Shown in pieces: positions 19,183-38,502 of a stretch of DNA of 64,000 nt. Made by a program: the position numbers and the translations under genes. Under the pieces are notes generated by a model. That model had not been told where the DNA came from. It made no database searches and worked only from the letters and a program-made list of their open reading frames with translations. This DNA is from Patescibacteria group bacterium (GTDB taxonomy: Bacteria > Patescibacteriota > Patescibacteriia > UBA11705 > DATKZF01), in NCBI GenBank assembly GCA_049319825.1, contig JBMORT010000006.1, positions 235,641 to 299,640 on the forward strand. Direction: 5' to 3'. How positions within the stretch are numbered: position 1 is the stretch's first letter; every line of letters begins with the position of its first letter.

Positions 19183-19211
19183 TTGACAATGCCACGGCGA
19201 TTATATATTAT
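19183..19211 (+). promoter_or_regulatory. sigma70-like promoter (TTGACA-17-TATTAT) upstream of ORF 19245
   Basis: ttgacaatgccacggcgattatatattat; consensus -35 hexamer and good -10. Confidence 0.35.
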
Positions 19212-19244
19212 TTTCTGTTAAAATATGTTAAAATTGTCTTAGTT

Positions 19245-20516: not shown

Positions 20517-20563
20517 GCTGACAATATTTTCAACTATTGATCTTTTTATGTTATAATTCACTC

Positions 20564-22141: not shown

Positions 22142-22165
22142 AAAAGTCTAGATAAATCTAGACTT
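22142..22165. promoter_or_regulatory. perfect inverted repeat (10-bp arms, 4-bp spacer) in the divergent promoter region between the HTH gene and the ECF sigma gene
   Basis: aaagtctaga taaa tctagacttt. Confidence 0.35.
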
Positions 22166-22342
22166 TCGTATTGATAAAAAACAATAAATTTATAATTTTG
22201 TCAAGGTGCCTGGTTCTTGATTTTTTCCCCCTTTTCCGCTATAATAATTGAATAATTTTAATATCACATGAGTATTTACTTTCGCATCAAAATATCTTAC
22301 CATTAATGCTGTAACGTTTTTATTAATTTGGCGACCTCTACA

Positions 22343-22897
22343 ATGAATAAGAACAAATTTACAATCAAATATCTTGTTTATCAGACTAGAAACCAAAAAG
22401 ATCCGGAAAGCTTTGCCAGGCTTTACGATATGTATGTGGATCAAATTTTCCGCTTTGTTCGCTTTAAGGTGGAGACGGAAGAAATCGCTCAGGATATCAC
22501 CTCAGATATTTTTTTAAGAACTTGGCAATATCTTTTGGAAAGTTCAAGGCCAATTGATAACTTCAACGCGTTGATATACCGAATTTGCCGGAACTGCGTT
22601 GTCGATCATTATCGGAAAAGAAGTCGGGAAGCGCAGGTTTATAACGCGGAAAATTTTGAGCAGCTGATACATGACCGCCAGGATATAACCGAGGATATAG
22701 ATAATAAAATCGATTTTGGTCAGATCGAAGAAAAGCTGAAACTGCTTAAGGAGGAATACCGGGAAGTGATCATCTTGCGATACGTGGAAGGATTAACCGT
22801 AAGCGAGATTTCCAAAATATTGGATAAAACAAAAAGCAATGTCAGGGTGCTGATACACCGCGCGTTAAAAACATTAAAAGACATCATTCATGACTGA
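22343..22897 (+). CDS. ECF-type sigma-70 family RNA polymerase sigma factor
   Basis: Region 2: FARLYDMYVDQIFRFVRFKV...DITSDIFLRTWQ. Region 4: REVIILRYVEGLTVSEISKILDKTKSNVRVLIHRALKTLK. Confidence 0.75.
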   Translation: MNKNKFTIKYLVYQTRNQKDPESFARLYDMYVDQIFRFVRFKVETEEIAQDITSDIFLRTWQYLLESSRPIDNFNALIYRICRNCVVDHYRKRSREAQVYNAENFEQLIHDRQDITEDIDNKIDFGQIEEKLKLLKEEYREVIILRYVEGLTVSEISKILDKTKSNVRVLIHRALKTLKDIIHD

Positions 22898-24128
22898 AGC
22901 AGATTTAATCAAACAGCTGAAGGGCTTAAGCGGCATGGGCGCCAGCAGTGATTGGAAAACAGCTAATCGCCATCTTTTGATTTCACAGATTTCTGGGCAG
23001 TCGGTTAATCGCCAGCCAGCGTCGTTTGATAAAAAGGTTTGGTATGGTTTTCGCGCGATGATGCCCACCAGCCTGAAGAATTTCATTCTCAAGCCGATTG
23101 GAGCGATCTCTTTAATGTTGGCCATAATCATGGGAGCTTCCGTGGTTTCGGTCAGCGCGTCGCGAGGCAGCGTTCCCGGTGACCTATTATATAAAGTAAA
23201 ATTGACTTCGGAAAAAATCCAGGCCGGACTGACGGTGAATGATGAAAAGAAAACCGATCTTTACATAAATTTTGCCGGCGAGCGGCTCCACGAAATGGAT
23301 AAGATCAAAGATGCCGGACAGGCGGAAAAGAAATCGGAAAATATAAAAATTGCCTTGGATGGCTTCACTAAGCAAATGAACACGGTCAAAACGCATATTG
23401 AGAAAGTTAGTGAAAAGCCAAAGCCGGCTCAGGATATCGTAGTGGTCGCTAAGAAAGTTGATGATAAGGTCGTGGAATTTACAGATAGAATAGATCAGAA
23501 AAAAGCGGAGATGCTCGATTTTGCCCAAAAAGATTTAGTCCGCGAATTGGATAACGCCAAAGAGGCGGTTGAAGAGGCGTCAGACGTAGCCATCGAGGTG
23601 ATTATCGAAAAGCATGTAAAGGGGGAGGCCGAAATTCCGGTGGAAGAGTTGGCCGGTAAACTCGAGCAAAAAATTAAGCGAGCCGAGGAAAAAATTATTA
23701 AAACTCAAGAAGAAGTTGAATATTTAAAGGACATTAATTCCGGCGATACTGAAGCTGAAATAAAAAATCCAGCCGGAGAGCAGTCGGTTGATTCGGCGAC
23801 GGCTGATCAAGTGGCGTCCATCGATCAGGTGGCCATGCCAGAACCGACAACAACCAAACCGATTGATTTACTGAATCAAGTTGAAGATAAACCAAAGGAA
23901 GCGCAGCAGCTGGTAGAACAAGCGAAAGAATTACTGTTATCGGGCGATTTGTCCAGCGCATTTAGCCGCATTATCGAAAGCAAACAGATTACCCGTCAAA
24001 TCGAAGAAACAATCAATACCGTTTCCGGCGATGGCGCGTCTGCCGAACCAAGCATGAAAGCCGACAGTTTGCCGGCCGGCACCGCGTCGAGCGCGCCAGC
24101 CAGCGGCGACGCAACAACAATAGATTAA
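22890..24128 (+). CDS. putative anti-sigma factor-like membrane protein (single TM, long coiled-coil extracytoplasmic region)
   Basis: Start overlaps the sigma-factor stop (ATGACTGA), suggesting translational coupling. Short cytoplasmic N-term, then TM IGAISLMLAIIMGASVVSVSA, then K/E-rich coiled coil. Confidence 0.45.
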   Translation: MTEADLIKQLKGLSGMGASSDWKTANRHLLISQISGQSVNRQPASFDKKVWYGFRAMMPTSLKNFILKPIGAISLMLAIIMGASVVSVSASRGSVPGDLLYKVKLTSEKIQAGLTVNDEKKTDLYINFAGERLHEMDKIKDAGQAEKKSENIKIALDGFTKQMNTVKTHIEKVSEKPKPAQDIVVVAKKVDDKVVEFTDRIDQKKAEMLDFAQKDLVRELDNAKEAVEEASDVAIEVIIEKHVKGEAEIPVEELAGKLEQKIKRAEEKIIKTQEEVEYLKDINSGDTEAEIKNPAGEQSVDSATADQVASIDQVAMPEPTTTKPIDLLNQVEDKPKEAQQLVEQAKELLLSGDLSSAFSRIIESKQITRQIEETINTVSGDGASAEPSMKADSLPAGTASSAPASGDATTID

Positions 24129-24307
24129 TTAAAAACCAAAGGGCATTACCTATATTTATTAATAATCAGCTCTTTAGGTTGTCGTAGCCTGAAAGGTCGA
24201 GTCCTAGCGATAGGGCGACTATGACATAATTTTAGATAGAGGCCTCGGCACTCTAACATTCTATAAGGATGTTAAAGAGCCAAGAGGTACAGGAGATTTC
24301 ATTAACT

Positions 24308-27300
24308 ATGGAAAACCTTAAAAAATTGTTTACTTTTGGGGTTGTATTAGCGACCATTGTTTGGGCAATGGGCGTTGCTACTTTTGTTCCAGTCGCCAGC
24401 GCGGCCGTTATCGAGCCGGGCGATGTGATCAAGGGCAGCTTTGACGCGGTGTATTTCTATGCATCTGACGGCAAACGATACGTTTACCCACAGGATAAAT
24501 ACTACTTCACTTGGCAGTATGATTTTTCTGGCGTTATGACCATTACTGACGGTGAATTAGCAGACATTCCATTAGCTGGTAATGTTGTTACCAGATACGG
24601 AACAAAACTGATCAAGATTTTATCTATTCCTTCTGTTTACGCTGTCAGCCGAGAGGGAACTCTTTATCGAGTGCCTGATCAAGCGACCGCTGAATCAATG
24701 TTCGGCACCGCTTGGGGCGGACGCGTAATGGATGTGCAGGATGGCTTTTGGCCAAACTACACCGATACCGGCATGGCCCTTGACGGCACTTGGTATCCGG
24801 ATGGATTCTTATTGAAGGCTGCGACCAGCTCAGATGTTTATTTCATTTGGGATGGCATGAAGAGTTTGATCCCGTCTGAAGATGCGTTCTACGCGAACCG
24901 CTTTATGTGGGAATACGTCACTGTGACCACTCAGGCAGTCTTGGATTCTTACACTGACGGCCCGGTATTATCAGGCGCTGATTCAATGCTGCTTGATGAT
25001 TCGCAGGGCGGCGGCGGTGCTGTCCCGGTTCCGGGCGAAGGCACTTTGAACGTCACCTTGTCTTCCAGCACTCCGGCCAGCCAGACCGCTCCTCGCGGAG
25101 CCACTGGCGTGGAAGTTGCCAAATACAACTTTACCGCTGGCGCTGATGCGGGCATCACTTTGAATTCATTGACCATTCATCGAACCGGTTTGGGAGATCC
25201 TCAGGAAATCTCAAAACTGTATTTGTACAATGGATCTTCAAAGCTGACCTCAGGTAAGACTATTTCAACTTCAACCAACAACGCACTGTTCGCTAATTTG
25301 AACTGGTACGTTGGACCTGGCCAAACTGGCACTTTGACTTTAGTCGCCGATGTAAGCTCGACTTATACCGCGACCAACGGCTCTCACCAGTTTGAAATCG
25401 TCAATGCCAATGCTGTTGACAGCACTGCTGAATCAGTAATGGGCAACTTCCCGGTCATGTCAAATACTTTGAACATCTCGACCGTAACCACTGGCAGCGT
25501 CGATTTAGAGTCTTCATCCAACACCTACACCAGAAAAGTCGGTGAAAAAGGCGTTGAAGTCGGTAGATTTACCACTTACGTGAATAACACCGAAGATGCT
25601 CATTTTGCCGGCGTTACCATTTACAATGCTGGCCGAGACATCTATGACAACATGAAGATCTATCGCGGCAGCGATTTAGCTTCAACCTGCTCAGAGAGCG
25701 GCGATTACTTTGTCTGCAGCATGAGCACCCCATGGCCGATTCAGAAAGGCGATTCCGCGTCTTTCACAGCGAAAGCTGATGTAACCGGCCGAGACGGCGA
25801 TCAGGGTAAATTGTATGTTCGCTATAATACTGACGTTCGCGTCACCGGCGACACCTATGGATTTAACATGGCTGTTGACGGCACTTTGGGCGGCAGCGCC
25901 ACTGATTCATACGTTGATGAAGCGGCTTCAGCTGCTAGCGGCACCCTGCAATTCGACCAGACCACTGTTGAAGCCGGACAAGTGACTTTCACTTTCAACG
26001 GTCCGAGCTCAGCTGACGTCTCTAAGAATACCAGCGATATCGTTTTGATGAACTTCTCGGTTACCGCTGGTTCTAACATTGATGTGGAAAAGACCGTAAT
26101 CAATTTGTCAGATTCTGCCACCAATTTGGCGGCGGCTGATATGGACGATTTAGAGTTGGTCTGCGACGGCTTGATTGTCGCTTCAGATTCAACCCCGGCT
26201 GTCGGTGATAATTCTTTCACTGATACCTGGTCTTTGACCGCTGGTCATACCACTGAATGCCAAGTCCGAGTTGATTTAACCAATGCTCCGACTGGCAATG
26301 AAAATATCAAAGCGACCTTAAAGAACCCAAGCGCAAACTGGACATTTAAGGACGCTGATTCCGGCGACACCGTCACTGACATCGTGCCGTCCGGAGACAT
26401 CGCCGGCAATGAAATGGACATTACTGTCGCTTCATTGACCATTGATGTCGCTTCAACCCCGGCCACCGGCGCCACTTATGTGACCGGTTCGACCAACGTT
26501 GATGCGGTTGGCTTTACTTTCCAAGCAGGCACCGCGACAGACGTTAAAGTTAACTCTGTCAAATTAGCCGCTTACTTGGATGACGATACAGATACCTTTG
26601 GCGATGCTAGCGACTTTAATCAGTTGTCCGGCGCCAAAGACGTGATCGTCAAAGTGACGATTTACGACGCTGACGCTCCGGCCACTCCGCTGGCTTCATC
26701 CAAGGGCTTGACTCTGGGTACCGCTGATATCACCGTTCAGTTTGATTCATTAAACTGGACCATCCCGGCGGGCACCACCAAGAAATTATTGGTAGTCGTG
26801 GATATTTCCACCACCGCGCCAAAGAGCGCCAATGACGATTACTTCGCGCTGGCGATCGATAGCGTCGATGCGGAATACGGCACCGGTACTTCTTTAACTC
26901 CGTCATACACCGATGACAACACCGCCCCGAACATTTATCAGGTTGTCACCACTGCCGGCACTTTGGACATGGTAATCGATGCTGATACTCCGAATTCAGC
27001 GCTGCTGGTTTCCGGCACTTCAAACAATGCCGCCACCAAGGTGAAATTCAATTCAACCAAGGAAGCGTTCACAGTTGAGAAACTGCGAATATTCCAGAAC
27101 GCTGCTGGCGGAAATGACGAAGTTGCTTCAGTCACCCTCGAATATGAGAACAGCTTAGGCGCGACCGAATCGGTCACTCAGCCGCTTGACTTCACCAATG
27201 GCACGGCGAACTTCACCAATTTGGACATTTATGTTCCAAAGGATGGCAGCGCCACCGCCATGGTTTACGTCAAACTCAACACCACCACCGGCGGTGCTGA

Positions 27301-27964
27301 TGACGGCGATGACATTATCTTAAGCGCCGAAGACGGCAGCGTGGCCGGCACCTTCCGAGCGGTTGGAGTCGGTTCCAGCACTGTCATCACTCAGACTTTG
27401 AGCGGTGATCAGGATGGCAACACGCATTATGTGTATGAAGCCTATCCGGCAATTACTTTCGCTTCCGATACCCCGTCCGGCAACTTCGTACCGAGCGCGA
27501 ACACTTTGGTCGCCAAGATCAAGGTAACCGCGACCGGCGGCAAGGACATCACTTTTGATGGCCCGACCGCTCCTAACTCAGCTGATCCTGATGATGAATT
27601 CGTCATTTCAGTATCTGCTTCAAGATCTGATAACGATGGCGTTGCTGAAACATGGGTATTAAAGGATGGCAGCGGCAATCAATTGGATTCTATCGCTGTC
27701 GACATCATCGGTGACGGCAACAACGAAGTAATCTTTGACTTCAATGACAAAGACTTCGTCGTTCCGGCCGGTCAGACCAAGTATTTGTATGTCTATACTA
27801 ATACTTTGGACTTAGAGACTGTCGGCGATTCCATCCAGATCTGGTTAGACGACGCCCCGACTTCTGCGGGCAATTGGAGCATCAATTACAATGCTGCCGA
27901 TTGGGCCAACTGGGATATTATCTTTAGAGGTGATATCTTCGGCGGTGCGTTAGTTAAACCGTAA
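24308..27964 (+). CDS. giant secreted surface protein (about 1218 aa). Signal peptide, N-terminal copy of the shared ~120-aa YxxxDGxRHxFP repeat domain, then Thr/Ser/Gly-rich beta-rich region
   Basis: RBS aggag at 24290. Signal peptide MENLKKLFTFGVVLATIVWAMGVATFVPVASA. Domain VYFYASDGKRYVYPQDKYYFTW ... DVYFIWDGMKSLIPSEDAF is homologous to the C-terminal domains of the three downstream proteins. Confidence 0.6.
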   Translation: MENLKKLFTFGVVLATIVWAMGVATFVPVASAAVIEPGDVIKGSFDAVYFYASDGKRYVYPQDKYYFTWQYDFSGVMTITDGELADIPLAGNVVTRYGTKLIKILSIPSVYAVSREGTLYRVPDQATAESMFGTAWGGRVMDVQDGFWPNYTDTGMALDGTWYPDGFLLKAATSSDVYFIWDGMKSLIPSEDAFYANRFMWEYVTVTTQAVLDSYTDGPVLSGADSMLLDDSQGGGGAVPVPGEGTLNVTLSSSTPASQTAPRGATGVEVAKYNFTAGADAGITLNSLTIHRTGLGDPQEISKLYLYNGSSKLTSGKTISTSTNNALFANLNWYVGPGQTGTLTLVADVSSTYTATNGSHQFEIVNANAVDSTAESVMGNFPVMSNTLNISTVTTGSVDLESSSNTYTRKVGEKGVEVGRFTTYVNNTEDAHFAGVTIYNAGRDIYDNMKIYRGSDLASTCSESGDYFVCSMSTPWPIQKGDSASFTAKADVTGRDGDQGKLYVRYNTDVRVTGDTYGFNMAVDGTLGGSATDSYVDEAASAASGTLQFDQTTVEAGQVTFTFNGPSSADVSKNTSDIVLMNFSVTAGSNIDVEKTVINLSDSATNLAAADMDDLELVCDGLIVASDSTPAVGDNSFTDTWSLTAGHTTECQVRVDLTNAPTGNENIKATLKNPSANWTFKDADSGDTVTDIVPSGDIAGNEMDITVASLTIDVASTPATGATYVTGSTNVDAVGFTFQAGTATDVKVNSVKLAAYLDDDTDTFGDASDFNQLSGAKDVIVKVTIYDADAPATPLASSKGLTLGTADITVQFDSLNWTIPAGTTKKLLVVVDISTTAPKSANDDYFALAIDSVDAEYGTGTSLTPSYTDDNTAPNIYQVVTTAGTLDMVIDADTPNSALLVSGTSNNAATKVKFNSTKEAFTVEKLRIFQNAAGGNDEVASVTLEYENSLGATESVTQPLDFTNGTANFTNLDIYVPKDGSATAMVYVKLNTTTGGADDGDDIILSAEDGSVAGTFRAVGVGSSTVITQTLSGDQDGNTHYVYEAYPAITFASDTPSGNFVPSANTLVAKIKVTATGGKDITFDGPTAPNSADPDDEFVISVSASRSDNDGVAETWVLKDGSGNQLDSIAVDIIGDGNNEVIFDFNDKDFVVPAGQTKYLYVYTNTLDLETVGDSIQIWLDDAPTSAGNWSINYNAADWANWDIIFRGDIFGGALVKP

Positions 27965-28007
27965 TCGTTGATATACGCAGTTGGCGGTCAGCTTTAAACC
28001 GCTGCGC

Positions 28008-28040
28008 AAAAGCCCCCGGCCGTTTGGCCGGGGCTTTTGT
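28008..28040 (+). terminator. rho-independent terminator
   Basis: aaagcccccggccgtttggccggggcttttg: 9-bp GC stem and T-run. Confidence 0.55.
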
Positions 28041-28182
28041 ATTAATTAGGCAGTGGGCAGAAGGAAATAGGCAAGAGTAATGCATCGATTGCTGCATACC
28101 TGCCCTCTGCCCGCCGCCTTTCGTTTTTTCTTTTAATTTGGTTTATGCTATAATATTATCAGCCAATCATAACTTCGCGTAT

Positions 28183-29823
28183 ATGAAAAAATTTTTCATT
28201 TTTCTTTTCATTTTACTTTTTATAATGGCTGGAGGGTTCACCCGAGCAGCGGAAATGGCTGATTATGTCAACATTGGCGCGCCAGCAGGGAGTTTTTTCA
28301 ATTCCGATTTTGACGTTTTGGTCATGGATATTGAAATACCCGATAACTCCGGACAGAGCGACATGCTCGAAGCGATTACCGTAAAAAACAACGGCAGCGC
28401 GCAAGCGTTGCGCAATATCGAAAAAGTGGCGATTTGGGTTGATGCCGGTCCGGTTGGGTTTGACGGTATGGGAGTCGATGAGTTTTTGGGATACGCGGCG
28501 CAAGATGGATACAGCATTTGGTATTTATCCGATATTTATCGTGGCGTTCCGGTCGGCGGGTTGCGTGTTTTCGTGTCGATTGAAACCGCTTACAGTTTTT
28601 CAACCACGACCACTACGCAGTTTTCCGTGCCGGCGCTTTTTGATGAAAATGGCAATGGCCGTTTTGATTACGGCGATACCGGTATATTCGTATCATCGGA
28701 AAACGATGGTCCGACCGACGAAGCCATTGTGAATTCGGCTTCACAAGAACTTCACAAATTGTCTTTTGATTATTTATCGCCAAAAGCGGTTATAGATAAT
28801 TTGAGCGATGGCGACTCCATATCCATTTCTTCCGGTGAGGTAACGATCACCGGACAGGCGCGCGATCGCGGCGGATCGTACCCGGCCGCCGTGTCAATTG
28901 GTATTAATGGTCAATGGTTTGAGGTGGAGAATACCGGAACATATTTTTCCGCTTGGCAATATCAATGGTTTGACTTTGGAACGCAGTCGAGCCACGAGAT
29001 TATCGTCCGCGCCACTGATTTTATAGGCAATCAGTTTGTTTCCGCGCCGATTAATGTGACGGTTGTGGGCACGGGCGATTTTACGTATGAAAATTCGATC
29101 ATCGAAACAGCCGTTTCTTCGGCCGATATCGATCAGACGGTTGATGTCACCGTTCATGTAATCGACAGCTATGGCGAACCGGTTTCCGGCGTTCAAGTCG
29201 ATTTGTTTTCATCAAAGGCTGGATATGATCAAATAACGGCCATTAATAATATCACCGATTCTGATGGTCAAGCTTTTTTCGCCATCACTTCCGGTTTGCC
29301 GGGCACGACTTTGTTTTACGCCATGATCGGCGACCAGTTGCTTGAATGGAATATCGGCGGACAATCAATTCCGGTCTCGACGGTGCTGACCATCAGCAGC
29401 GGCGCGGAATTGGCCGGCCGGCTGGTGAAGTCCACGGAATTGTCAACCGTTTATTTGCTTGATGAAGACAATATCCGCCATGCTTTTCCCAATGAAAATA
29501 TTTATCGGTCATGGTTTGACGATTTCAGCCGGGTGGAAGTGCTTTCGGCTCAGGAAATCGCCGCTTATCCGCTTTCCAGCAACGTAAAATACAAACCGGG
29601 CAGTATGATAAAAATGCCGTCGGTGCCGCGAGTGTACATGGTTGATCAAGATCATAATTTGCGCTGGCTGGAAAATCAAAATATCGCCTTCATGCTTTTC
29701 AGTTCAAAGTGGGCATCACGTATCGATGATATGTCCGAGGCATTTTTCAGCGATTATCGGGAAGGGGAGACGATTCTCGAAGCGAATATGTCGATTGAGG
29801 TGTTCAGGAGTTTGTTGCCCTAA
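28183..29823 (+). CDS. secreted protein with bacterial Ig-like (Big) domain and C-terminal shared ~120-aa surface domain
   Basis: Signal peptide MKKFFIFLFILLFIMAGGFTRAAE. Big-like VDVTVHVIDSYGEPVSGVQVDLFSS...DSDGQAFFAITSG. C-term TVYLLDEDNIRHAFPNENIYRSWFDDFSRVEV...RVYMVDQDHNLRWLENQ. Confidence 0.55.
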   Translation: MKKFFIFLFILLFIMAGGFTRAAEMADYVNIGAPAGSFFNSDFDVLVMDIEIPDNSGQSDMLEAITVKNNGSAQALRNIEKVAIWVDAGPVGFDGMGVDEFLGYAAQDGYSIWYLSDIYRGVPVGGLRVFVSIETAYSFSTTTTTQFSVPALFDENGNGRFDYGDTGIFVSSENDGPTDEAIVNSASQELHKLSFDYLSPKAVIDNLSDGDSISISSGEVTITGQARDRGGSYPAAVSIGINGQWFEVENTGTYFSAWQYQWFDFGTQSSHEIIVRATDFIGNQFVSAPINVTVVGTGDFTYENSIIETAVSSADIDQTVDVTVHVIDSYGEPVSGVQVDLFSSKAGYDQITAINNITDSDGQAFFAITSGLPGTTLFYAMIGDQLLEWNIGGQSIPVSTVLTISSGAELAGRLVKSTELSTVYLLDEDNIRHAFPNENIYRSWFDDFSRVEVLSAQEIAAYPLSSNVKYKPGSMIKMPSVPRVYMVDQDHNLRWLENQNIAFMLFSSKWASRIDDMSEAFFSDYREGETILEANMSIEVFRSLLP

Positions 29824-29983
29824 GGAGTTAGAGTTACCGTTTGTGGATAAGTTATAAAAAATAATTATTTTAGCTGTATAATGTCAGCAGAAAGAACTAT
29901 AAAATTTATATAAAATTTAGGGCATCTAATTTTGCTCGAATTTAATTATTATTAAAAAAATTTTGCATTTTTTAAAAAAAATT

Positions 29984-32900
29984 ATGAAAAAGCGAAATAA
30001 CACATTATCTTTGGTGTCAAAGATAATCAGCATCGCCTCCATTTGCGGACTGTTGGCTGTGCCGTATTTGGCCGATGCTTCCAACTTCGCCGATTTCGGC
30101 GGACCGGGCGCTCCGGCCATCACTGTCGGCCCGAGTTCTACCAATGTTGTGACTATGGCCGTTACCATTCCGGATGCCTGGAATGGCGGCGCGTTCACCG
30201 CGGATATTGCTAAAAAAGCGGGCGCCAATTCATTTTGGCAAGGAGACTCTTTGAATTCTATCCCGGCATTGGGGACGACATCCGGCGTCGGTTATAAAGA
30301 AGATGGCACCGGCGGCTTTCAGGGCACAGAGCCGGTAGTCCGTGATTTGGACGCGGATAGCGCATATACTTCAGCCGCCGACACCACTATCGCCGGTGTG
30401 CCGCCAGCCGCGGGCACGACCATCACCACCACCAAAGACGCGGACTGGACTTCAGTTTATTTTTACGATGCTGTTGGCGGCGGCGCCTGGAGTGCCGCGG
30501 CTGACTTGATTTTCAATGACGACGGCAATGTTTACTATGATATCGGACCCGATACTCTTGAAGCCGGCACCGGCGCGGAAAATACTTTAGGCACGCTGAC
30601 CGAGCCGGCAAACTGGGGGCTGTACTATTATGACGCGGTAAACGGCAATGTTTATAACGGCGGCCTAGACTGGATCGGTCGAGATGACGATGCCGATCAG
30701 GTTTACACTTCGGCCGCGGACGTAATCTACATTGATCAGGCAGATTTACCTCTTGCGGGCAATACATATTATGACGTAGTCGCCGCCGATCAAGTGTGCT
30801 CGGATAACAGCGATTTGGCCGCGGCTTCCTGCGTCTATACGGATTCGGGCGGCGATTGCGACGCTACCGACGGCGATACCCACACTTATTATATGGGAGC
30901 GGCTTGCGGCACCGCGACCGATACCTTAATCGTCACCGGCGACAACTGGATGACCACTGATGATACCATTGATAACACTACCGATTTTATTAAAGAAAAT
31001 GTCGCCGAAGAACTGACCTATTCCGCGGCCGCGGACGCCACCATTGACGGCGTGGCGCCGGTCGCGGGGACAGCCATAGTGAACGCCAAGGATGCTGATT
31101 GGACATTGCTTTATTTTTATGACGCGGTGGCCGGCGGCGGCTGGAATGCCGGCACAGACTTGATTTTTAATGACAGCGGATTTGTGTATTATGATATCGG
31201 CCTTGATACTTATATCGCTGGCAATTCGGTGGAAAATCAGCTTGGCAATATCAATGAGCCGGCAAATTGGAATTTGTTTTACTATGACGCCGTTAATCTT
31301 GACGCTTGGAATAACGCCGCTGACTGGTTGGGAACCGATGACGGCGGATCCGGAACTTTCTCCACCAGCGCGGATGTCGATGTTTATAGCACCGGCGGTT
31401 TATCGAACGCCGACGCGCTGGCGAATTTCGCCGCTGATTGCGATGGCGGCGGTGCGGGCACCCAAGCTTGCGCTTATACCGGCAGCGCTCCGATAGACGC
31501 GGGTGATTCGATTTTGGTGGATCAGGGAACGGCCGCTGGCGCGGCGCCGAACGCGGTCGTTGACAAGCAAGCTGACCAGTTGATCGGTATCGGGGTCACC
31601 AACGCGCTGGGCAACGCCGTTAATCCAACTGATATCGGTAGCGTGTATATTTTCAGAGACGGACCGTCCGCCGGCTGGACCGGTGATGAGGTATTATTGG
31701 GTGCGATGACGCGTCATTCTGTCAATCAAAACGAATGGCGGCTCGATATATCGGCAACGCCTCAAGCGGTGAGCGCCGGCGGCTTATCGATATTCGTCAC
31801 CGCCGACATAACCGCCACTCCCACCCATGGACGAACTTTGCAGTTCGCCATCCCGATATATAACGATACGGGCGCAGACAATATCGCCAATTCAGACGGT
31901 GATTTGGGAGTCTTTATGTCTTCAAATAACGACGGTCCGCTCGATGCGGGCATTGCCAATGGCGCGGCCCAGACAATAGACGCGCTACCGCCGACGCTTC
32001 AGAGCTTTACTTCAACTACGGTCGATGGCACTTACGGACCCGGTTCAAACATCAATGTCACCGCCACTTACAATGAAAATATTGCCGGCGGCAGTTTGAT
32101 GACGGTTACTTTGGATAATGGCGTCAATGTGACTTTGAATAATATCGTGGGCTCGACCATTTCCGGAACCTACACGGTTGGCGTTACCGGCAGCGGCGAA
32201 GATTCGGCCGATTTGACCGTAGCCAGCATTCTTTCGGAAAGCGTGGCCGATTCTTATGGAAACATTCAAGGAAGTTCAGCTGTTCCCGGCTCTCCGAACA
32301 ATATAGCCGACACGAGTGCGATCGTTATTGATACCACCGCTCCGACGATTACCGAGGTGACGCCGGTGCCGACCCCCACCAATAATCAGAATCCTTCCTA
32401 TACTTTAAATACCGATGAAGCGATCGGGTTGTCTTGGGCCGGCGGTTGCGACAGTGTCACCGGTGCTGTCGGCACCGGCAATCAAACGGTAACCCTTGAC
32501 GCCGACGGCGCCGGCGCTGTGTTGCCAGCAGCAACTTATAATTGCACCTTGACCGGCACTGATGGCGCGGGCAATGCTGGAAATTTGATTATGTCCGCTT
32601 TTACTGTGGATATTACCGCTCCTTCCATAACCGCCGCTCAGCTGGAGGACACCGATAATGACGGGTATGCCGACCGAATCGGCTTAACGTGGGATGAGGC
32701 ATTGTTTGATACCGCATCGGCGGCTAACGGCTTTGATGTGACTTCCGCATCTGATCATGGTTCGTGCGTCGGCGAATCGGCTGATCCGGACGGCACGAAT
32801 TCAGTGGATGTTGATTTTACTTGTTCAATTCCTTATACCGATGTTGGGGATATGAATTTGTCATTGACTCAAAATGCCGGGGTTCGAGACGCGGCCGGCA

Positions 32901-34216
32901 ATCAATCGCTTACGACCGTGCTGACTGCCATTTCAGCGCCGGCGATTATTGACGCGGCGGATCCGGTGATTTTAACAACGTCACCGGCCAATTCGGCCAG
33001 CGGCGTGGGCATTGCCCAAGATGTGGTGGTAACATTTAGTGAGCCCATGAATACCGGTACCGTGACCCAGACTTCAGTTCCTGATCCCACCGGCTGGTCC
33101 GTCGTTTGGACCTCGGGCAATACGGTGGCCACTTACAGCCATGCAGTAAACTTCAATTCCAGCACAGCCTATACCGAGCAAATTACCGCCGGACAAGATA
33201 CCAACGGACGAAATTTGGCTGCCGGACCGGTGGCCAATCCTTGGACGTTTACGACCGGAGCTCCCAGTGGTGGCGGTGGCGGTGGTACTGTTTCTCCGAT
33301 AAATTATTCCCTCTTGATTAATAATGGCAGCGCACAAACTAATTCATCAATCGTGACCTTAAAGTTATCGGCAGAAAACGCCGCCTATATGTTGATTTCA
33401 GAAGATCCTGATTTTACCGATGCCAATTGGCAAGCATACGCGACGACCAAGACATTTACGCTCAGCAGCGGTTACGGCACCAAGAACGTATACGCCAAAT
33501 TCAAATCTTCAACCAATAATCAGTCAAGCCGAGTTTCGGATTCAATACAATACGTGGAAACAATAACGGAGGAACCGGTAGAGGAACCGACACCCGAGCC
33601 TTCGGAGGGTGAATATCCTTCCGGATTGGTTGCCGGAGATTTGGTTAAAACCTCTGATTCTTCGTCTGTTTATGTGCTTGGCGCCGATTCCAAGCGGCAT
33701 GCTTTCCCCAATGAGGACGTATATTTCAGCTGGTACGCAGACTTTTCACAGGTTAAAGTCATTTCCAGCAGCGTATTGGCTTCGATTCCTTTGGGTAAAA
33801 ACGCAACCATGCGCCCGGGCACTTGGCTGATAAAGGTGAAATCATTGCCGAATGTTTACGCGGTTGAGCCGGGCGGAGTGATCCGTTGGATTGAAAATCA
33901 GGGGCTGGCAGAAGAGTTGTACGGCAGCACTTGGAACGAAATGATCAAAGATGTCAGTGACGCTTTCTGGTCAAATTACACTCCGAATGGCAGTATCAGC
34001 GAAGTTATTCATCCCACCGGCGCGGTTATTCAGTATAATGGCCAAACCGCCATATATTTCATCGAAAACGGCGCTACTCGGTATTTGACGGCAGACGCCT
34101 TTGCCGCCGGGGGGTTCAGGCATATGTTCACGATAAAGAATGTTTCCGGCTCGATCAGTTATCCGGCTGGTGGAGATTATGCTGTCAGCAGCACGATCAA
34201 GATCATGGGATTATAG
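29984..34216 (+). CDS. giant secreted surface protein (about 1410 aa) with a ~215-aa internal tandem duplication, Ig-like domains, and C-terminal shared domain
   Basis: Signal peptide; repeats beginning D-x-D-S-x-YTSAAD. SbsA/Big-like segment DPVILTTSPANSASGVGIAQDVVVTFSEPM. G-rich linker GGGGGG. C-term SVYVLGADSKRHAFPNEDVYFSWYADF. Start could be 29963. Confidence 0.6.
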   Translation: MKKRNNTLSLVSKIISIASICGLLAVPYLADASNFADFGGPGAPAITVGPSSTNVVTMAVTIPDAWNGGAFTADIAKKAGANSFWQGDSLNSIPALGTTSGVGYKEDGTGGFQGTEPVVRDLDADSAYTSAADTTIAGVPPAAGTTITTTKDADWTSVYFYDAVGGGAWSAAADLIFNDDGNVYYDIGPDTLEAGTGAENTLGTLTEPANWGLYYYDAVNGNVYNGGLDWIGRDDDADQVYTSAADVIYIDQADLPLAGNTYYDVVAADQVCSDNSDLAAASCVYTDSGGDCDATDGDTHTYYMGAACGTATDTLIVTGDNWMTTDDTIDNTTDFIKENVAEELTYSAAADATIDGVAPVAGTAIVNAKDADWTLLYFYDAVAGGGWNAGTDLIFNDSGFVYYDIGLDTYIAGNSVENQLGNINEPANWNLFYYDAVNLDAWNNAADWLGTDDGGSGTFSTSADVDVYSTGGLSNADALANFAADCDGGGAGTQACAYTGSAPIDAGDSILVDQGTAAGAAPNAVVDKQADQLIGIGVTNALGNAVNPTDIGSVYIFRDGPSAGWTGDEVLLGAMTRHSVNQNEWRLDISATPQAVSAGGLSIFVTADITATPTHGRTLQFAIPIYNDTGADNIANSDGDLGVFMSSNNDGPLDAGIANGAAQTIDALPPTLQSFTSTTVDGTYGPGSNINVTATYNENIAGGSLMTVTLDNGVNVTLNNIVGSTISGTYTVGVTGSGEDSADLTVASILSESVADSYGNIQGSSAVPGSPNNIADTSAIVIDTTAPTITEVTPVPTPTNNQNPSYTLNTDEAIGLSWAGGCDSVTGAVGTGNQTVTLDADGAGAVLPAATYNCTLTGTDGAGNAGNLIMSAFTVDITAPSITAAQLEDTDNDGYADRIGLTWDEALFDTASAANGFDVTSASDHGSCVGESADPDGTNSVDVDFTCSIPYTDVGDMNLSLTQNAGVRDAAGNQSLTTVLTAISAPAIIDAADPVILTTSPANSASGVGIAQDVVVTFSEPMNTGTVTQTSVPDPTGWSVVWTSGNTVATYSHAVNFNSSTAYTEQITAGQDTNGRNLAAGPVANPWTFTTGAPSGGGGGGTVSPINYSLLINNGSAQTNSSIVTLKLSAENAAYMLISEDPDFTDANWQAYATTKTFTLSSGYGTKNVYAKFKSSTNNQSSRVSDSIQYVETITEEPVEEPTPEPSEGEYPSGLVAGDLVKTSDSSSVYVLGADSKRHAFPNEDVYFSWYADFSQVKVISSSVLASIPLGKNATMRPGTWLIKVKSLPNVYAVEPGGVIRWIENQGLAEELYGSTWNEMIKDVSDAFWSNYTPNGSISEVIHPTGAVIQYNGQTAIYFIENGATRYLTADAFAAGGFRHMFTIKNVSGSISYPAGGDYAVSSTIKIMGL

Positions 34217-34335
34217 AGTTAATATAATAAAAAAGGGCTTTGGCGAGTCCTTTTTTATTTCAAGTTTTGTGGATAAATTGTTTACAATTATTGAAAATAA
34301 TTGTATAATAATAAATGATTTTTTAAAAAAAATAT

Positions 34336-36756
34336 ATGAAATTGAAAATTTTCTCAATGTTTTTAATTTGTTTTGTCGTCGTTGGTGCTTGCGCCGTTTT
34401 CAGCGTGATGCCAGCGACCGCGACAACCGCTGATTTTTTCGAAGTACGATTTGATTCAACAACATTAATGAACAATGATTGGATTTATGTTAAATTCAAT
34501 CAGCATGTTTGGGGAGCTGGGGGAGTGTCATTAAAGCCAAGCGATTTTATCTACACCGATGGCAATGGCGCGGGCATGAGCGCGATCAAATCCGTCGTCG
34601 TTCATAATCCCGGTGACGATTACGCCATATTGGAAATGAATGCCGCCGCTGTCGCTGGAGACACGGCCGATACATTAGAAGCTGATTTTGGCAAAATCTG
34701 GACAGTATCCGGCGGAGCATTGCCCGGCAAAACTCCAGTATCCTTAGTTGACAATAACGGAGCGGGCCCCACTTTATATGCCTATACTGGAACCGGAGCC
34801 GGCGCGGTCGCTCAAATCGGAGCGAGTAATATGATGGTTGAGTTTATGAGCACAACTCTCGGTGCCGGCGGTAACGCATTGCCTACGCCGATATTCTCCT
34901 CGGCTATTTTTCCGCCATATATTGGGCCGTTAAACTCATCCAATTTTACATATACCAATAATGGGGGCGGCGGGGTCGGACAAGGCATCTCTTCGATCAT
35001 TCATTTTAATTTTGGTGACAGCCGTGTTTACCTGAAAATGAATTTAGCGGTTACCGGTGAAATTGGCACTGATTCACTAGATTGCAACGCAACTGCTTTT
35101 GATATGTGGGGAAATCCCTGCGTCGCCACGCCACCGGCGCTGATTCAGGCGGATGGTGGAGCGCCAACGCTGAGCACCGTTGAAACAACGGAAGGGGTCG
35201 GAACCGGGGAGATGGTCTTTATTGATCCGGCGAGAAATGCGCCCGAGCCGATTTTTGGCAACGCTGGCTTTTCCATGCCAATAACCGCAGCGGAGTTAAC
35301 TTATAAAGATAACAATCCAGGCGGTGCCACCTCATTGATCAGTGTCACCCATGCCGTTGGCAATGATTACGCGATCATGAATTTCGACAGATTCGTCGCC
35401 TCAACCGATTTTTCGGTGGATAATATCAGTTCAACCATCACTCCAGGCGTGGATTTATTCAATAATTCAATAATTGGTTCTGCCGTGCTGGCCGACACGA
35501 TCGATCCGGTGATTATCAGTTATTCACCAACAGATAACGCCACCAACGTGTCGATTGATTCACCGTTAGTTGTCGATTTCAGCGAACCGATCAACACCGG
35601 ATCATTAACCGGCACGATTTCGCCTGATCCTGGTAATTGGGTTAACAATTGGAGCAATGGCGACAAAAGAGTCAGCATGACGCATGATCAATATCTTTAT
35701 TTCACACAGTACGTGATTACCAACGGCACAGTTGATGATACCGCCGGTAACTCCATGGGCGGATTTAACGGCTGGGATTTTACCACCAGCAAACGTTCTT
35801 CTGGCGGTTCACTTTACCCAACCAATTATTCGCTTAGAATTAATAATGATGATGTCACCACGAACTCTTTGAACGTATCCCTGGACATTAATGCGGAGAA
35901 TGCCGATAAAATGATGATTTCCAATTATTCGAATTTCATTGATTCCGATTGGGAGGATTTTGACACCGGTAAACTCTGGACGTTGCTTGAAGGCGCCGGC
36001 ACTAAGACCGTCTATATGTTATTCAAAAATTTGAATGGCAATCAATCGATTGTTGTTTCGGATACCATTGAATACGCCGCAGCTGATGACGCGACCACAT
36101 CGAATGTCGATGATGAATCGGATCAAGCCGAGCCAGCCGAGACAATAATGTTTCCTGATGGATTAACGGCGGGAGAATTGGTAAAAGTGATGAACACCTC
36201 GGCTGTTTATTTGCTCGGAGCGGATGGCGATAGACACGCATTTCCCAATGAAGATGTGTACATGAGTTGGTTTGATGATTTTTCCTCGGTAAAAGTGGTT
36301 TCCAACAGCACCCTGGCAAAGATCGCTTTGGGAAAAAATATTACCATGCGTCCGGGAACATGGTTGATAAAAATTAAATCATTGCCAAATGTGTATGCGG
36401 TTGAACCCGGTGGTTTGATTGAATGGATTGAATCGGAGGATTTAGCCGAAGATTTATACGGCAGCGGCTGGAATATAAGGATTAAGGATTTAAGCGATGC
36501 GTTTTGGCCCGATTACAAAAAGAACGGATCAATTACCGATCCGGTCCATCCCTGCGGCACATTGATTCGATACGCGGGAGAAAACAATGTTTATTACATA
36601 GATGCGGACGCTAAGCGATTTATTTCACCGTCGATATTCCAGGCCAATGGATTCAAAGAATCATTCATCGTCGATAATGTGCCCAGCTCGTTTGTGTATT
36701 CGGCCGGCGATGATTTGTCTATCAGCGGCATGACCGCCATGATGTTTGCTCAATAA
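34336..36756 (+). CDS. secreted surface protein (806 aa), paralog of the preceding protein over its C-terminal ~450 aa
   Basis: Signal peptide MKLKIFSMFLICFVVVGACAVFSVMPATA. Shares the DPVIISYSPTDNATNVSIDSPLVVDFSEPIN Ig-like domain, the ...YPTNYSLRINN... domain, and the C-term AVYLLGADGDRHAFPNEDVYMSWFDDF domain. Paralog nucleotide identity ~80% over 36.18-36.5 kb vs 33.65-34.0 kb. Confidence 0.6.
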   Translation: MKLKIFSMFLICFVVVGACAVFSVMPATATTADFFEVRFDSTTLMNNDWIYVKFNQHVWGAGGVSLKPSDFIYTDGNGAGMSAIKSVVVHNPGDDYAILEMNAAAVAGDTADTLEADFGKIWTVSGGALPGKTPVSLVDNNGAGPTLYAYTGTGAGAVAQIGASNMMVEFMSTTLGAGGNALPTPIFSSAIFPPYIGPLNSSNFTYTNNGGGGVGQGISSIIHFNFGDSRVYLKMNLAVTGEIGTDSLDCNATAFDMWGNPCVATPPALIQADGGAPTLSTVETTEGVGTGEMVFIDPARNAPEPIFGNAGFSMPITAAELTYKDNNPGGATSLISVTHAVGNDYAIMNFDRFVASTDFSVDNISSTITPGVDLFNNSIIGSAVLADTIDPVIISYSPTDNATNVSIDSPLVVDFSEPINTGSLTGTISPDPGNWVNNWSNGDKRVSMTHDQYLYFTQYVITNGTVDDTAGNSMGGFNGWDFTTSKRSSGGSLYPTNYSLRINNDDVTTNSLNVSLDINAENADKMMISNYSNFIDSDWEDFDTGKLWTLLEGAGTKTVYMLFKNLNGNQSIVVSDTIEYAAADDATTSNVDDESDQAEPAETIMFPDGLTAGELVKVMNTSAVYLLGADGDRHAFPNEDVYMSWFDDFSSVKVVSNSTLAKIALGKNITMRPGTWLIKIKSLPNVYAVEPGGLIEWIESEDLAEDLYGSGWNIRIKDLSDAFWPDYKKNGSITDPVHPCGTLIRYAGENNVYYIDADAKRFISPSIFQANGFKESFIVDNVPSSFVYSAGDDLSISGMTAMMFAQ

Positions 36757-36772
36757 AAATAAAATTTATGAA

Positions 36773-36800
36773 CGCCCTCGGTTTCCGGGGGCTTTTTTTT
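36773..36800 (+). terminator. rho-independent terminator
   Basis: gccctcggtttccgggggcttttttttat: 7-bp stem with one G-U, T8 run. Confidence 0.55.
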
Positions 36801-36884
36801 ATAACTTAAATATGGTTAAATAGTAAAATACAGCCGTTAGAAAGAATTTTTGTCTAAAATTGTATTAAAAAATAGAATAATGAC

Positions 36885-37439
36885 ATGGATTATTCCAATC
36901 TTGACGACATCAGTATTGTCGAAATCACAATAAAAAACGATAAAAATGCTTTTGCGGTGCTAATTTCCAGATATCAGGGTAAATTGTTTTCCTATATTTT
37001 AAGGTTGATAAATCATCGCGAGGAGTCTGCGGATGTTCTGCAAGAGGTGTTTTTAAAGGCTTACAAAAGTTTAAAAAGTTTTAATTCCAAAAAAAGTTTT
37101 TCCAGCTGGATATATCGAATCGCTCACAATGAATCGGTCAATTGGCTGAAAAAAAACACCAAATATAAAAAGCAATCGCTTGATGATGAAAACAATCCAA
37201 TTGACGTGTCGGACAGTCATGATCTTTCGGCGGCGTCAATAATCAACGAAGAAAGGGTTGAATTGATTAAATCGCTGGCTAAATTGCCAATCAAATATAA
37301 GGAAGTGCTGGTGTTGCGGTTTGTTGAGGAAAAATCATATGAAGAAATTTCTCAAATTATCAGCAAGTCGGTCAATGCCGTCGGCATTATGATCAATCGC
37401 GCGAAAAAAATGTTGGCGGAAATTCATAAAATTGATTAA
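36885..37439 (+). CDS. ECF-type sigma-70 family sigma factor
   Basis: Region 2 LISRYQGKLFSYILRLINHREESADVLQEVFLKAYKSL...FSSWIYRIAHNESVNWLKK. Region 4 YKEVLVLRFVEEKSYEEISQIISKSVNAVGIMINRAKKMLAE. Confidence 0.75.
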   Translation: MDYSNLDDISIVEITIKNDKNAFAVLISRYQGKLFSYILRLINHREESADVLQEVFLKAYKSLKSFNSKKSFSSWIYRIAHNESVNWLKKNTKYKKQSLDDENNPIDVSDSHDLSAASIINEERVELIKSLAKLPIKYKEVLVLRFVEEKSYEEISQIISKSVNAVGIMINRAKKMLAEIHKID

Positions 37440-37447
37440 ATGCAAGT

Positions 37448-38389
37448 ATGAACAATTGGGAAAAAAAATTAGGCGGTTTGCGACAGGATTTTAACGTTGA
37501 GGTTCAAGCTCGGGTAATGGAAAAAATAAGCAATGTTAAAATGACGCCGAAAATATATTTTCAATCAAAAAAGACATTGATGATTTTATTGTTTTTGTCG
37601 TTATTATTAGCTGTCGTGTTTATAATCAATTTGGCTTTATACGATGTTCAGCAAAGCGCCAGCTATGAATACATTAATTTTGGCGCATCCGGTATCGGCG
37701 TCTTTTTGCGCAATTTGCCTTATCTGCTACTGTTTAGCATGCTTGTTTTTCTGGCATTGTCCATCTGGATGATGTCCAAGTTTGAATTGTCTTATAAAAA
37801 ATATTTCGCTGTTTTCATTGTAGTTATCGTGGCCGGAACATCCATGGGCGGCACCGCGCTGTTTGCCTCCGGTTTCAACGATCAAATGCGAAATAAAGTT
37901 GATAATCAGGAATTGACAATGCCGCTGGTGCGGCCGGTCGCCCGTAAGCTTTATAATACATACGGACCGAGAATGATCGATCGCAGCTTGGTCGGCAGGG
38001 TCGCGGTGCCGCCCGGAGAATCGAGGGAAATGCTGGTGATAACGCCTCAGGGACAGCAGGTGACGGTGAAAATACAAAAAAATTGTAAAATAGTATCGGC
38101 GCAAGGAACAGTCGCTTCCGGCGACATGTTGATTATAATGGGTGAGCCGGTCGTTAATTTTCATGCCAGCGGCATTAAAGTTATCGAAGATCAGCGGCGC
38201 GCCATCGATATGATGAAAACGCTCAGCCGCCGGCAGCTGATGGTAAAATTCAGGAAACCAGAACCGCTCAACGACGCGATTGAGTTCCCTTTTGATCCGG
38301 AAAAAAAGATTAAATTTATGGAAAACATGGGCGGAGTGCTGCAATCGGGCAGCCAGGTTAAGACGGCGAATATTATTTGGGGCGATTGA
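37448..38389 (+). CDS. membrane protein downstream of the ECF sigma (possible anti-sigma factor)
   Basis: Short cytoplasmic N-term, then at least 3 predicted TM segments, then a ~180-aa extracytoplasmic domain. Position immediately 3' of the sigma gene with an 8-nt gap. Confidence 0.35.
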   Translation: MNNWEKKLGGLRQDFNVEVQARVMEKISNVKMTPKIYFQSKKTLMILLFLSLLLAVVFIINLALYDVQQSASYEYINFGASGIGVFLRNLPYLLLFSMLVFLALSIWMMSKFELSYKKYFAVFIVVIVAGTSMGGTALFASGFNDQMRNKVDNQELTMPLVRPVARKLYNTYGPRMIDRSLVGRVAVPPGESREMLVITPQGQQVTVKIQKNCKIVSAQGTVASGDMLIIMGEPVVNFHASGIKVIEDQRRAIDMMKTLSRRQLMVKFRKPEPLNDAIEFPFDPEKKIKFMENMGGVLQSGSQVKTANIIWGD

Positions 38390-38502
38390 AATAAAAGAAA
38401 AAGCGATATTTAGGCAGTGGGCGAGTGATACGTTATAATTGCCTGCTGCCTTTTATTTTTAATTTTTCATTTTTCCTTGGTAATTAATAAATTTGTCCAC
38501 AG

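Follow-up and report, generated by a model that had tools for sequence, protein, structure and literature searches.

In Bacillus anthracis (Sap, EA1 and the BSLs, with SLH domains) and in Clostridioides difficile (SlpA and the Cwp proteins, with three CWB2 repeats), the main surface protein and the proteins associated with it share one type of anchor, and the SLH domains of surface-layer (S-layer) proteins attach them to the wall of the producing cell itself. In Streptomyces, the chaplin and rodlin surface-layer genes are controlled by the sigma-BldN/RsbN pair. The locus described here resembles each of these systems in part. It is an island of four consecutive genes for secreted proteins, G1 to G4, in a 64,000-nucleotide (nt) stretch of contig JBMORT010000006.1 (positions 235,641 to 299,640 of the forward strand) from an uncultured, ultra-small Patescibacteria group bacterium; this whole stretch is referred to below as the window. 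The best explanation of the island as a whole, which is held with reasonable confidence, is that it encodes wall-anchored surface proteins, among which G1 is S-layer-like and stands in a conserved regulatory cassette.

The Candidate Phyla Radiation (CPR), or Patescibacteria, accounts for a large share of the diversity of bacteria, and its envelope is essentially uncharacterized at the molecular level. Cryo-EM of CPR cells has revealed S-layers and no outer membrane (10.1101/2020.05.14.094862; PMC13293708), with lattice periodicities of 3.8 and 10 nm reported in the first of these, and peptidoglycan genes are common in the phylum (PMC13293708), but the envelope proteins themselves are not identified in these studies or in a further one (10.1101/2020.05.14.094862; PMC13293708; PMC5220378). 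In the Absconditicoccaceae, SLH proteins play the surface-layer part (PMC13059738), and no CPR S-layer proteins other than SLH proteins were found in the literature. Among the Firmicutes, the swapping of wall anchors on a conserved S-layer scaffold has been described (10.1101/2025.04.02.646754), and the SbsC-type 'beads-on-a-string' S-layer proteins of the Bacillales have an N-terminal wall-binding region followed by about eight or nine small domains (PMC13635256). Two further groups of proteins are relevant at the level of fold. PlyCB and the enterococcal lysin domains bind the cell wall as octamers or tetramers, with the oligomer required for activity (PMC7098653), and the authors of the EccB1 structure noted its resemblance to PlyCB and speculated on peptidoglycan binding (PMC4769845).

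The four genes lie on the forward strand at 24308-27964 (G1), 28183-29823 (G2, a 561-amino-acid (aa) open reading frame (ORF)), 29984-34216 (G3) and 34336-36756 (G4). The N-terminus of each product has a basic n-region followed by a hydrophobic h-region, as in signal peptides, and all four proteins have an isoelectric point (pI) of ~4.1, are rich in Thr, Ser, Gly, Ala and Asp, and contain less than 1% Cys (0.3% in G1). G1 has no match in Pfam, which detects Big_1 in G2 and Big_5 in the other two proteins. G4 is a paralogue of G3 (34% identity across 886 aligned columns), and residues 73-247 of G2 are similar to residues 536-711 of G3 by BLASTP.

A shared domain links the four proteins, with BLASTP expectation values of 1e-15 to 1e-31 among them. 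A profile built from the four window copies and database relatives places this domain at nt 24404-24970 in G1, 29410-29790 in G2, 33623-34180 in G3 and 36163-36720 in G4, and matches no other ORF in the window. In protein terms, it spans residues 33-221 of the 1218-aa G1 protein and residues 1225-1410 of the 1417-aa G3 ORF. The domain consists of homologous units of ~60 aa in tandem, three in G1, G3 and G4 and two in G2; in hhalign comparisons, units 1 and 3 match with a probability of 95%, units 1 and 2 with 75%, and units 2 and 3 with 62%. None of the four copies matches a Pfam family to E 10, and there is no NCBIfam match to E 0.01, no credible PHROGs match to E 1 (only noise at E 0.09-0.2), and no match among PDB sequences, searched to E 10, that is better than E 0.09. 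In the same Pfam (E <=10) and NCBIfam searches, the profiles of SLH, PG_binding_1, LysM, SH3b, CWB1, CWB2 and other named wall anchors remain unmatched, and no paper describing the domain was found.

A first-pass annotation made from the sequence had already recognized four consecutive secreted proteins with a common domain of no named family, N-terminal in G1 and C-terminal in the others, and all of this holds. Five of the eight domain boundaries it proposed lie within ~20 nt of those given above, but its 3' limit in G1 falls 70 nt short, and in G2-G4 it extended the domain to the stop codons, ~30-36 nt past the profile match. It correctly saw a repeat structure with two units, which is the number in G2; the units were taken as ~50 aa long, and the third unit in G1, G3 and G4 was missed. 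As for the Ig-like segments that it assigned to all four bodies, Pfam has the Big_1 and Big_5 matches in G2, G3 and G4 and none in G1.

The domain family is large. An exhaustive profile search over 1.84 billion cluster representatives (50% identity clusters) yields 6,195 clusters at E <= 1e-3, of which 2,775 reach E <= 1e-30. The best matches show two architectures: one in which the domain directly follows the signal peptide of a protein of ~1,150-1,300 aa, as in G1, and one in which it occupies the extreme C-terminus of proteins of highly variable length, as in G2-G4. A tblastn search with the single G3 domain as the query returned 146 relatives, mostly from metagenome-assembled genomes (MAGs) of Patescibacteria, Uhrbacteria, Falkowbacteria and Parcubacteria. 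Eighty related loci were fetched, 17 of which hold a large G1-type gene (18 counting the window). The domain is present in 102 ORFs across the 80 loci, and two to four domain genes stand in tandem in 16 of them.

An AlphaFold2 model of the G3 copy, calculated from a 15-sequence alignment, contains three beta-hairpin/helix units (predicted local distance difference test (pLDDT) 92.6; predicted template-modelling score (pTM) 0.85). In a Foldseek comparison with the PDB, the only hits at E <0.01 are EccB periplasmic domains, with low TM-scores (overall ~0.25) because the repeats are arranged differently. The individual unit of the predicted model, a beta-sheet with a helix spanning ~55-70 aa, superposes on PlyCB and on the cell-wall-binding domains (CBDs) of Lys170 and LysIME-EF1. 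Judged from this model, PlyCB-type wall-binding domains and EccB repeats are one fold group that includes the units of the domain. The proteins of the island are not members of the EccB family itself, as there is no T7SS_ESX1_EccB match in Pfam and there are no type VII secretion system (T7SS) genes near the island, whose surroundings encode sigma factors, glycosyltransferases and surface proteins.

The partners of the domain are diverse. Among 53 ORFs from the related loci, it is fused to Peptidase_M23 and NAGPA (four cases each), Peptidase_S8 (three), PA14 and CBM96 (two each), GH114, GH10, GH26 and Peptidase_C25, as well as to Big_1/Invasin_D3 (six), BNR propellers (five) and one cupredoxin. 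M23 fusions also appear in a separate database search with the domain, and several proteins consist of a signal peptide and the domain alone. As a matter of domain architecture, this is the pattern typical of a localisation module that combines promiscuously, like SLH, CWB2 or LysM. A second line of evidence comes from the body of G1 (aa 255-1231), which has 97 homologues of similar length (~1,150-1,300 aa). The domain is found at aa ~30-215 in 61 of these, and the remaining homologues carry at the same position SLH (as two or three repeats), PG_binding_1 or other hairpin-repeat variants. A Peregrinibacteria protein is one example with SLH, and NCBI calls one of the PG_binding_1 homologues 'peptidoglycan-binding protein'.

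Most likely, the domain serves as a cell-wall anchor across the CPR, because it is fused to many unrelated secreted modules, because SLH or PG_binding_1 replaces it in homologues of G1, and because its predicted fold matches PlyCB-type wall-binding domains. The suggestion of a cell-surface anchoring module in the first-pass annotation is supported by the same observations. Fusion of the units would probably give a single chain the multivalency for which the phage domains assemble into tetramers or octamers, and the units would bind a wall glycan or peptidoglycan non-covalently. Since the module is acidic (pI 4.2-5.3) and rich in aromatic residues (12-17%), recognition of a glycan appears to fit better than charge-based binding to anionic polymers. 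The idea of a basic anchor was ruled out by the same acidity.

Those homologues of G1 that lack the domain often have other, unannotated hairpin-repeat variants in its place, exemplified by 'DVYIVKxxGxKKFKRLILNPxVFxSYGHLxW' and 'GTVWMIMPDGTRRAYTSAGAFLSYGF' (variant N-termini are present in P0174, P0175, P0177, P0206, P0207, P0239, P0242, P0249, P0222, P0224, P0229, P0215 and P0232). These variants look like distant relatives of the ~60-aa unit, and the superfamily is probably much larger than the 6,195 clusters detected by the profile.

The queried body of G1 is identical over its full length (100% identity and coverage) to P0161, a 'hypothetical protein [Patescibacteria group bacterium]'. The AlphaFold2 model of this body is all-beta, with ~8 beta-sandwich domains (pLDDT 93.2) whose relative orientation is uncertain (pTM 0.60), and Foldseek matches it to generic multi-Ig arrays only, such as PrgB, macroglobulins and integrins. 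By sequence, G1 has the properties of an S-layer protein, being a large, secreted, acidic and lineage-conserved protein with an anchor region and a low Cys content. On balance, G1 would seem to be the S-layer protein, or the principal surface-layer protein, of this organism, because one architecture of ~1,200 aa is conserved across CPR lineages, because the N-terminal anchors of its homologues include SLH, because of its acidic, low-Cys composition and the long structured leader that precedes it (below), and because glycan-synthesis genes are among its neighbours both here (12852-21724) and in relatives. The same assignment is favored because CPR cells have S-layers and lack an outer membrane in the cryo-EM papers cited above, because peptidoglycan genes are common in the phylum, and because SLH proteins fill this role in the Absconditicoccaceae. 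The surface-layer interpretation offered by the first-pass annotation is in this sense upheld, at least for G1. G2-G4 would then be proteins associated with the wall or the S-layer, attached by the same anchor at the C-terminal end, and the island as a whole would encode surface proteins of a monoderm CPR bacterium, held on the cell by a shared wall-anchoring module.

The glycan-synthesis genes lie directly upstream of the cassette and comprise an asparagine synthase-like gene, two or three GT1/GT4 glycosyltransferase genes and a gene for an NAD-dependent epimerase/dehydratase. In two other loci (L083 and L084), Wzy_C and glycosyltransferase genes are located downstream of the G1 homologue. 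Such genes may be responsible for glycosylation of the Thr/Ser-rich surface proteins or for synthesis of the anchor ligand.

Upstream of G1, and on the same strand, are sigA (22343-22897), which encodes an ECF (extracytoplasmic function) sigma factor of 184 aa, and antiA (22890-24128), which overlaps sigA by 8 nt and encodes a DUF5667 membrane protein that is presumed to be the anti-sigma factor. SigA, like the product of the second sigma gene of the region, sigB (below), matches Sigma70_r2 and Sigma70_r4_2 in Pfam, has no match to region 1 or 3, and scores well above the TIGR02937 cut-off of 42.9 bits (87.9 bits for sigA and 97.9 for sigB), which are the properties of group 4 (ECF) sigma factors. 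SigA also matches Sigma70_ECF; its best NCBIfam subfamily is the BldN type, at 114.9 bits and below the cut-off of 206. AntiA has one transmembrane-like segment (aa 62-80) and an extracytoplasmic part made up of DUF5667 (E 3.6e-11) and a Lys/Glu-rich helical region. No anti-sigma domain such as zf-HC2 or RskA is detected in it; Pfam finds DUF5667 only, NCBIfam yields nothing significant, and nothing was found in the literature on DUF5667. Its overlap with the sigma gene, its single transmembrane segment and its extracytoplasmic part are the gene context of an anti-sigma factor.

The order sigma gene, DUF5667 gene, G1 is kept in all 17 related loci that have a large G1-type gene, although in three of them the sigma and DUF5667 genes are ~1 kb apart. 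The cassette extends further upstream. A gene for a 98-aa HTH_17-like (helix-turn-helix) regulator is located on the reverse strand at 21812-22108, divergent from sigA, and its orthologue is found in the same divergent position in 17/17 loci (phmmer E 1e-12 to 1e-36); its match to Pfam HTH_17 (E 1.8e-5, 25.3 bits) is slightly below the cut-off of 27. In the intergenic region between this gene and sigA there is a perfect 18-bp palindrome, GTCTAGATAAATCTAGAC (22146-22163), which is a candidate operator. Its pattern, GTCYA-N8-TRGAC, occurs once in the 64 kb (0.03 expected), and 14 of the 18 loci have one to three copies <=450 nt upstream of the sigma gene.

A candidate sigA promoter of the AAC/CGT type used by ECF sigma factors, TGTAAC-N16-CGAC, is located at 22310-22335 and is the only match to this motif on the forward strand of the window. 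It ends 7 nt before the sigA ATG, so a transcript starting from it would be nearly leaderless. Among the 17 loci, 15 have the motif (TGTAAC-N16/17-CGT/CGA) once each. Six sites are upstream of the sigma gene and six immediately upstream of the anti-sigma-like gene; of the others, the one in L062 may be upstream of the true sigma start, and two are inside the sigma gene. A sigma-70-like site, TTGATT-N17-TATAAT, is also present upstream of sigA (22217-22245). No terminator was found between antiA and G1, and G1 may therefore be reached by read-through. As judged by synteny, G1 is the only one of the four genes embedded in a conserved cassette.

A different arrangement is seen in six relatives (L004, L005, L007, L010, L016 and L024), where a sigma-70-type promoter precedes the sigma gene, whose leader contains a hairpin and U-run (for example, GGGAAATACTCCCTTTATTTTTG). 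This hairpin and U-run resembles an attenuator, and the ECF-type promoter lies instead just upstream of the anti-sigma-like gene.

The spacer between antiA and G1 contains a structured leader element (24181-24225, forward strand). Its most constant part is the 8-mer AAGGTCGA, which is at 24193-24200 in the window and is found in this spacer in 18/18 loci, three of which have a version that differs at one base. Directly 3' of the 8-mer is a hairpin, P2, whose loop is often of the GNRA type, and a second stem, P1, which involves sequence just upstream, encloses the whole; in the window, the stems are GTCGTAG/CTATGAC (P1) and TCCTA-GCGA-TAGGG (P2). The 8-mer is predicted to be single-stranded, in an asymmetric internal loop between P1 and P2, and the stem sequences vary between loci. 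When folds are computed with the 8-mer constrained to be unpaired, this architecture is the minimum-energy fold at 14 of the 18 sites, as against 146 of 3,000 random control sites (4.9%). Exact copies of AAGGTCGA number 67 in the loci and the window together; the architecture is present at 15 of them, and 13 of those 15 are in antiA-G1 spacers.

The leader is not alignable by MAFFT, and the alignment used was hand-fitted and N-padded. In it, both partners have changed in 14 of 15 pairs, compared to pairing of 39-47% in slid controls, a difference to be read with the bias towards structure that the alignment has by construction. A covariance model derived from the alignment is weak (0.48 bits per position) and was not relied on; it recovered 11 true sites and 2 off-target matches at E <= 1. 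With gathering thresholds, Rfam gives no match to the window or to any of 8 related loci, and searches to E 10 give only opposite-strand miRNA noise at least 17 nt downstream of the element. Taken alone, the window leader is not unusually stable (z -1.54). A possible extra helix, GACC/GGTC, is present in some loci only, and the leader is absent from the three variant G1 loci examined, one each with SLH, PG_binding_1 and the 'DVYIIK' variant. The possibility that AAGGTCGA is an ECF promoter's -10 element was rejected, since no conserved -35 element is found at a constant spacing and the sequences on either side covary in the manner of helices.

Our preferred guess is that the leader serves in processing or stabilisation, or as a site where a protein binds, and so uncouples the G1 mRNA from the regulator mRNAs. 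There is perhaps an even chance that the sigma/anti-sigma pair couples the output of G1 to the state of the envelope by read-through from the ECF promoter into G1, with the leader acting in one of these ways; the leader would in this scheme set the G1 mRNA apart from those of its regulators. A far more extensive version of the scheme is doubtful. In that version, many lineages of the CPR are without SLH and anchor their whole exoproteome, including the S-layer, by means of the module, and the S-layer gene has a dedicated feedback circuit composed of an HTH repressor bound to the 18-bp palindrome, an ECF sigma factor, a DUF5667 sensor and a new class of cis-regulatory RNA. This RNA would present AAGGUCGA in its internal loop and bind a protein or a wall-precursor ligand, so as to match S-layer synthesis to wall growth. 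The same reading, held at the same low probability, makes this a circuit with no described counterpart.

In the six relatives with the attenuator-like hairpin, which are of the Falkowbacteria type, the antiA-G1 spacer is 450-860 nt long (500-860 nt except in L024) and is located at ~7250-7900 in most. These spacers contain further conserved blocks (for example, CGGTTAAGCTTTTCTCCAGCC...GGCTGGCAGAAC and GGAGCGGGATTCCGAyyGATTT) and a long hairpin (CTTGTTAGTTTATCTC...GAGATAAATTAACAAG), and the core motif is present twice in the L016 spacer. The whole may be a larger structured RNA.

Several observations weigh against the picture of a wall-anchored S-layer protein in its own regulatory cassette. 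The module is acidic, unlike many wall anchors, which are basic, and a fibrillar adhesin is as compatible with the modelled structure of G1 as a lattice-forming protein is. Synteny is the single argument for antiA as an anti-sigma factor, there is no ECF motif directly upstream of G1, and independent transcription of G1 could start from a weak sigma-70-like site at 24129-24156. The SLH and PG_binding_1 variants of G1 (one locus each) have no sigma cassette, and the regulation would therefore be lineage-specific. Finally, many of the relative MAGs carry the label 'uncultured Gammaproteobacteria'; this label is regarded as unreliable because two such chromosomes are only ~0.93 and 1.0 Mb in size.

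It is possible to read the module differently, as one that targets the wall or surface of a host or prey cell, in which case the island would encode the attachment and attack proteins of an episymbiont, with the enzyme fusions as secreted weapons. CPR bacteria do live attached to hosts (10.1101/2020.05.14.094862), the closest folds are phage endolysin domains that recognize a target wall from outside, and peptidoglycan hydrolases, proteases and glycosidases are among the fusion partners. This reading is nevertheless unlikely, given that the module is exchanged for SLH and PG_binding_1 on the conserved G1 scaffold, where SLH would be expected to face the producer's own wall, and directly follows the signal peptide in 61 G1-type proteins. 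Partners of a non-lytic kind (the cupredoxin, BNR propellers and Ig arrays) occur just as often, and methanogenic archaea are among the reported CPR hosts, as are Gram-negative bacteria, in which the wall is not exposed. A role in protein-protein docking or oligomerisation, for example in binding to the G1 lattice or in forming rings, with no binding of wall glycans, is highly improbable. PlyCB-type domains oligomerise via conserved interfaces, EccB repeats have a structural role in a protein machine, and the module shares an acidic character with the G1 body, all of which would be compatible with docking; but G1 carries the module itself and would still need a wall anchor, the substitution of SLH or PG_binding_1 at the same site points to wall ligands, and several proteins contain nothing but a signal peptide and the module.

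The remaining alternative concerns regulation, and corresponds to the view of the first-pass annotation that G1-G4 form one ECF-controlled regulon, induced by envelope stress or contact, under both of the flanking sigma pairs. The two pairs do bracket the island as that annotation described, with both sigma factors confirmed by Pfam and TIGR02937, G1 is tightly syntenic with the first pair, and G1-type genes in other loci (L020, L059, L062 and L070) are likewise followed by clusters of domain genes. A single regulon is very unlikely nonetheless. The ECF-type motif, which the annotation had proposed to look for upstream of each of the four large genes, is absent there and upstream of sigB on the forward strand of the window, the only such promoter being that of sigA, and only G1 is syntenic with sigA and antiA (17/17). 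G2, G3 and G4 are each preceded by a TATAAT-type promoter, and these promoter-like sequences suggest that the three genes are probably driven by housekeeping-type promoters of their own. Intrinsic terminators follow G1 (28014-28033, -27.5 kcal/mol), G3 (~34231-34257, -15.1 kcal/mol) and G4 (36774-36792, -15.3 kcal/mol), all on the forward strand; the annotation had given each large gene a terminator, but no convincing one was found after G2. The annotation did not mention the divergent HTH gene, the palindromic operator or the structured leader.

The second sigma pair is also difficult to include in such a system. It consists of sigB (36885-37439, 184 aa), which has a sigma-70-like promoter (TTGTCT-N17-TAGAAT), and memB (37448-38389), whose product has three transmembrane-like segments; both are on the forward strand. 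No separate orthologue of sigB and no homologue of memB were found in the 80 related loci, and the pair accordingly lacks a counterpart near other domain genes, contrary to its proposed place in the system. It is probably an unrelated pair that neighbours the island. A role of memB as an anti-sigma factor has no support beyond its adjacency to sigB, and the protein has no Pfam or NCBIfam match.

Some other features of the window fall outside the cassette and the module. The perfect DnaA-box 9-mer TGTGGATAA occurs at 1744, 20008, 29842, 34268, 40655 (reverse strand) and 56455, six copies where 0.31 are expected and a number reached in 0/100 shuffles. Two of the copies precede the TATAAT boxes of G3 and G4 by ~26-27 nt, and no origin-like GC-skew switch is present in the window. 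The repeat AGGCAGTGGGC is found at 28048-28058, just 3' of the G1 terminator, and at 38412-38422, just 3' of memB, within imperfect inverted repeats (GGCAG...CTGCC), with weaker copies at 18892 and 19011. There are four matches with at most one mismatch, against 0.47 expected, and the element looks like a small intergenic repeat of the repetitive extragenic palindromic (REP) type. Other large ORFs of 800-1,290 aa are located at 14-3889, 39624-42341, 42572-44977 and 54303-57005. The product of the second contains lamin-tail domains, those of the first and third have no Pfam match, and the anchor domain is absent from all four by profile.

If the interpretation given here is correct, the domain profile would mark wall-attached proteins in thousands of CPR genomes, and G1 would be a concrete S-layer protein candidate with a confident structure model that could be fitted to tomograms. 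The module could be put to use as a portable anchor in surface display or as bait for the wall ligand, and the compact, conserved cassette, with its defined cis elements (operator, ECF promoter and leader), could be tested in vitro without culture. The fold, for which phage lysins and EccB are the sources known so far, would also gain a cellular, tandem-fused branch.

A comparison with the systems introduced at the outset places the island closest, in its organization, to SLH- and CWB2-based surfaces. As in those, an anchor of about three repeats is common to the main surface protein, enzymes and adhesins, and paralogues are clustered; the module differs from SLH and CWB2 in fold and sequence family, and G1 differs from their main surface proteins in being preceded by a cassette of sigma, anti-sigma and HTH genes and a leader. 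The likeness to sigma-BldN/RsbN lies in an ECF sigma factor and membrane partner linked to a gene for a protein surface layer, as well as in the best-scoring subfamily of sigA. That score is only 114.9 against a cut-off of 206, the partner is a DUF5667 protein, the target is one protein of ~1,200 aa encoded in cis, and the control of G1 is predicted. With SbsC, G1 shares an N-terminal anchor region followed by a chain of ~8 small domains, but not sequence or a specific fold match, since generic Ig-like arrays are all that is recovered.

For the module, the likeness to PlyCB, Lys170 and LysIME-EF1 is in the predicted fold of its units, without detectable sequence similarity to these domains. 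The phage domains are non-covalent tetramers or octamers of one ~8-kDa unit, whereas the module has two or three diverged units in one chain, is cellular and mainly found in CPR, and is carried by structural surface proteins. EccB is a membrane-anchored core component of type VII secretion, with a central beta-sheet domain and four repeats, and the module has neither a match to it nor the secretion genes that would accompany it. As far as the predicted model goes, the anchor is a cellular, tandem-fused module that belongs with PlyCB-type domains and EccB repeats at the level of fold, with no link to them in sequence.

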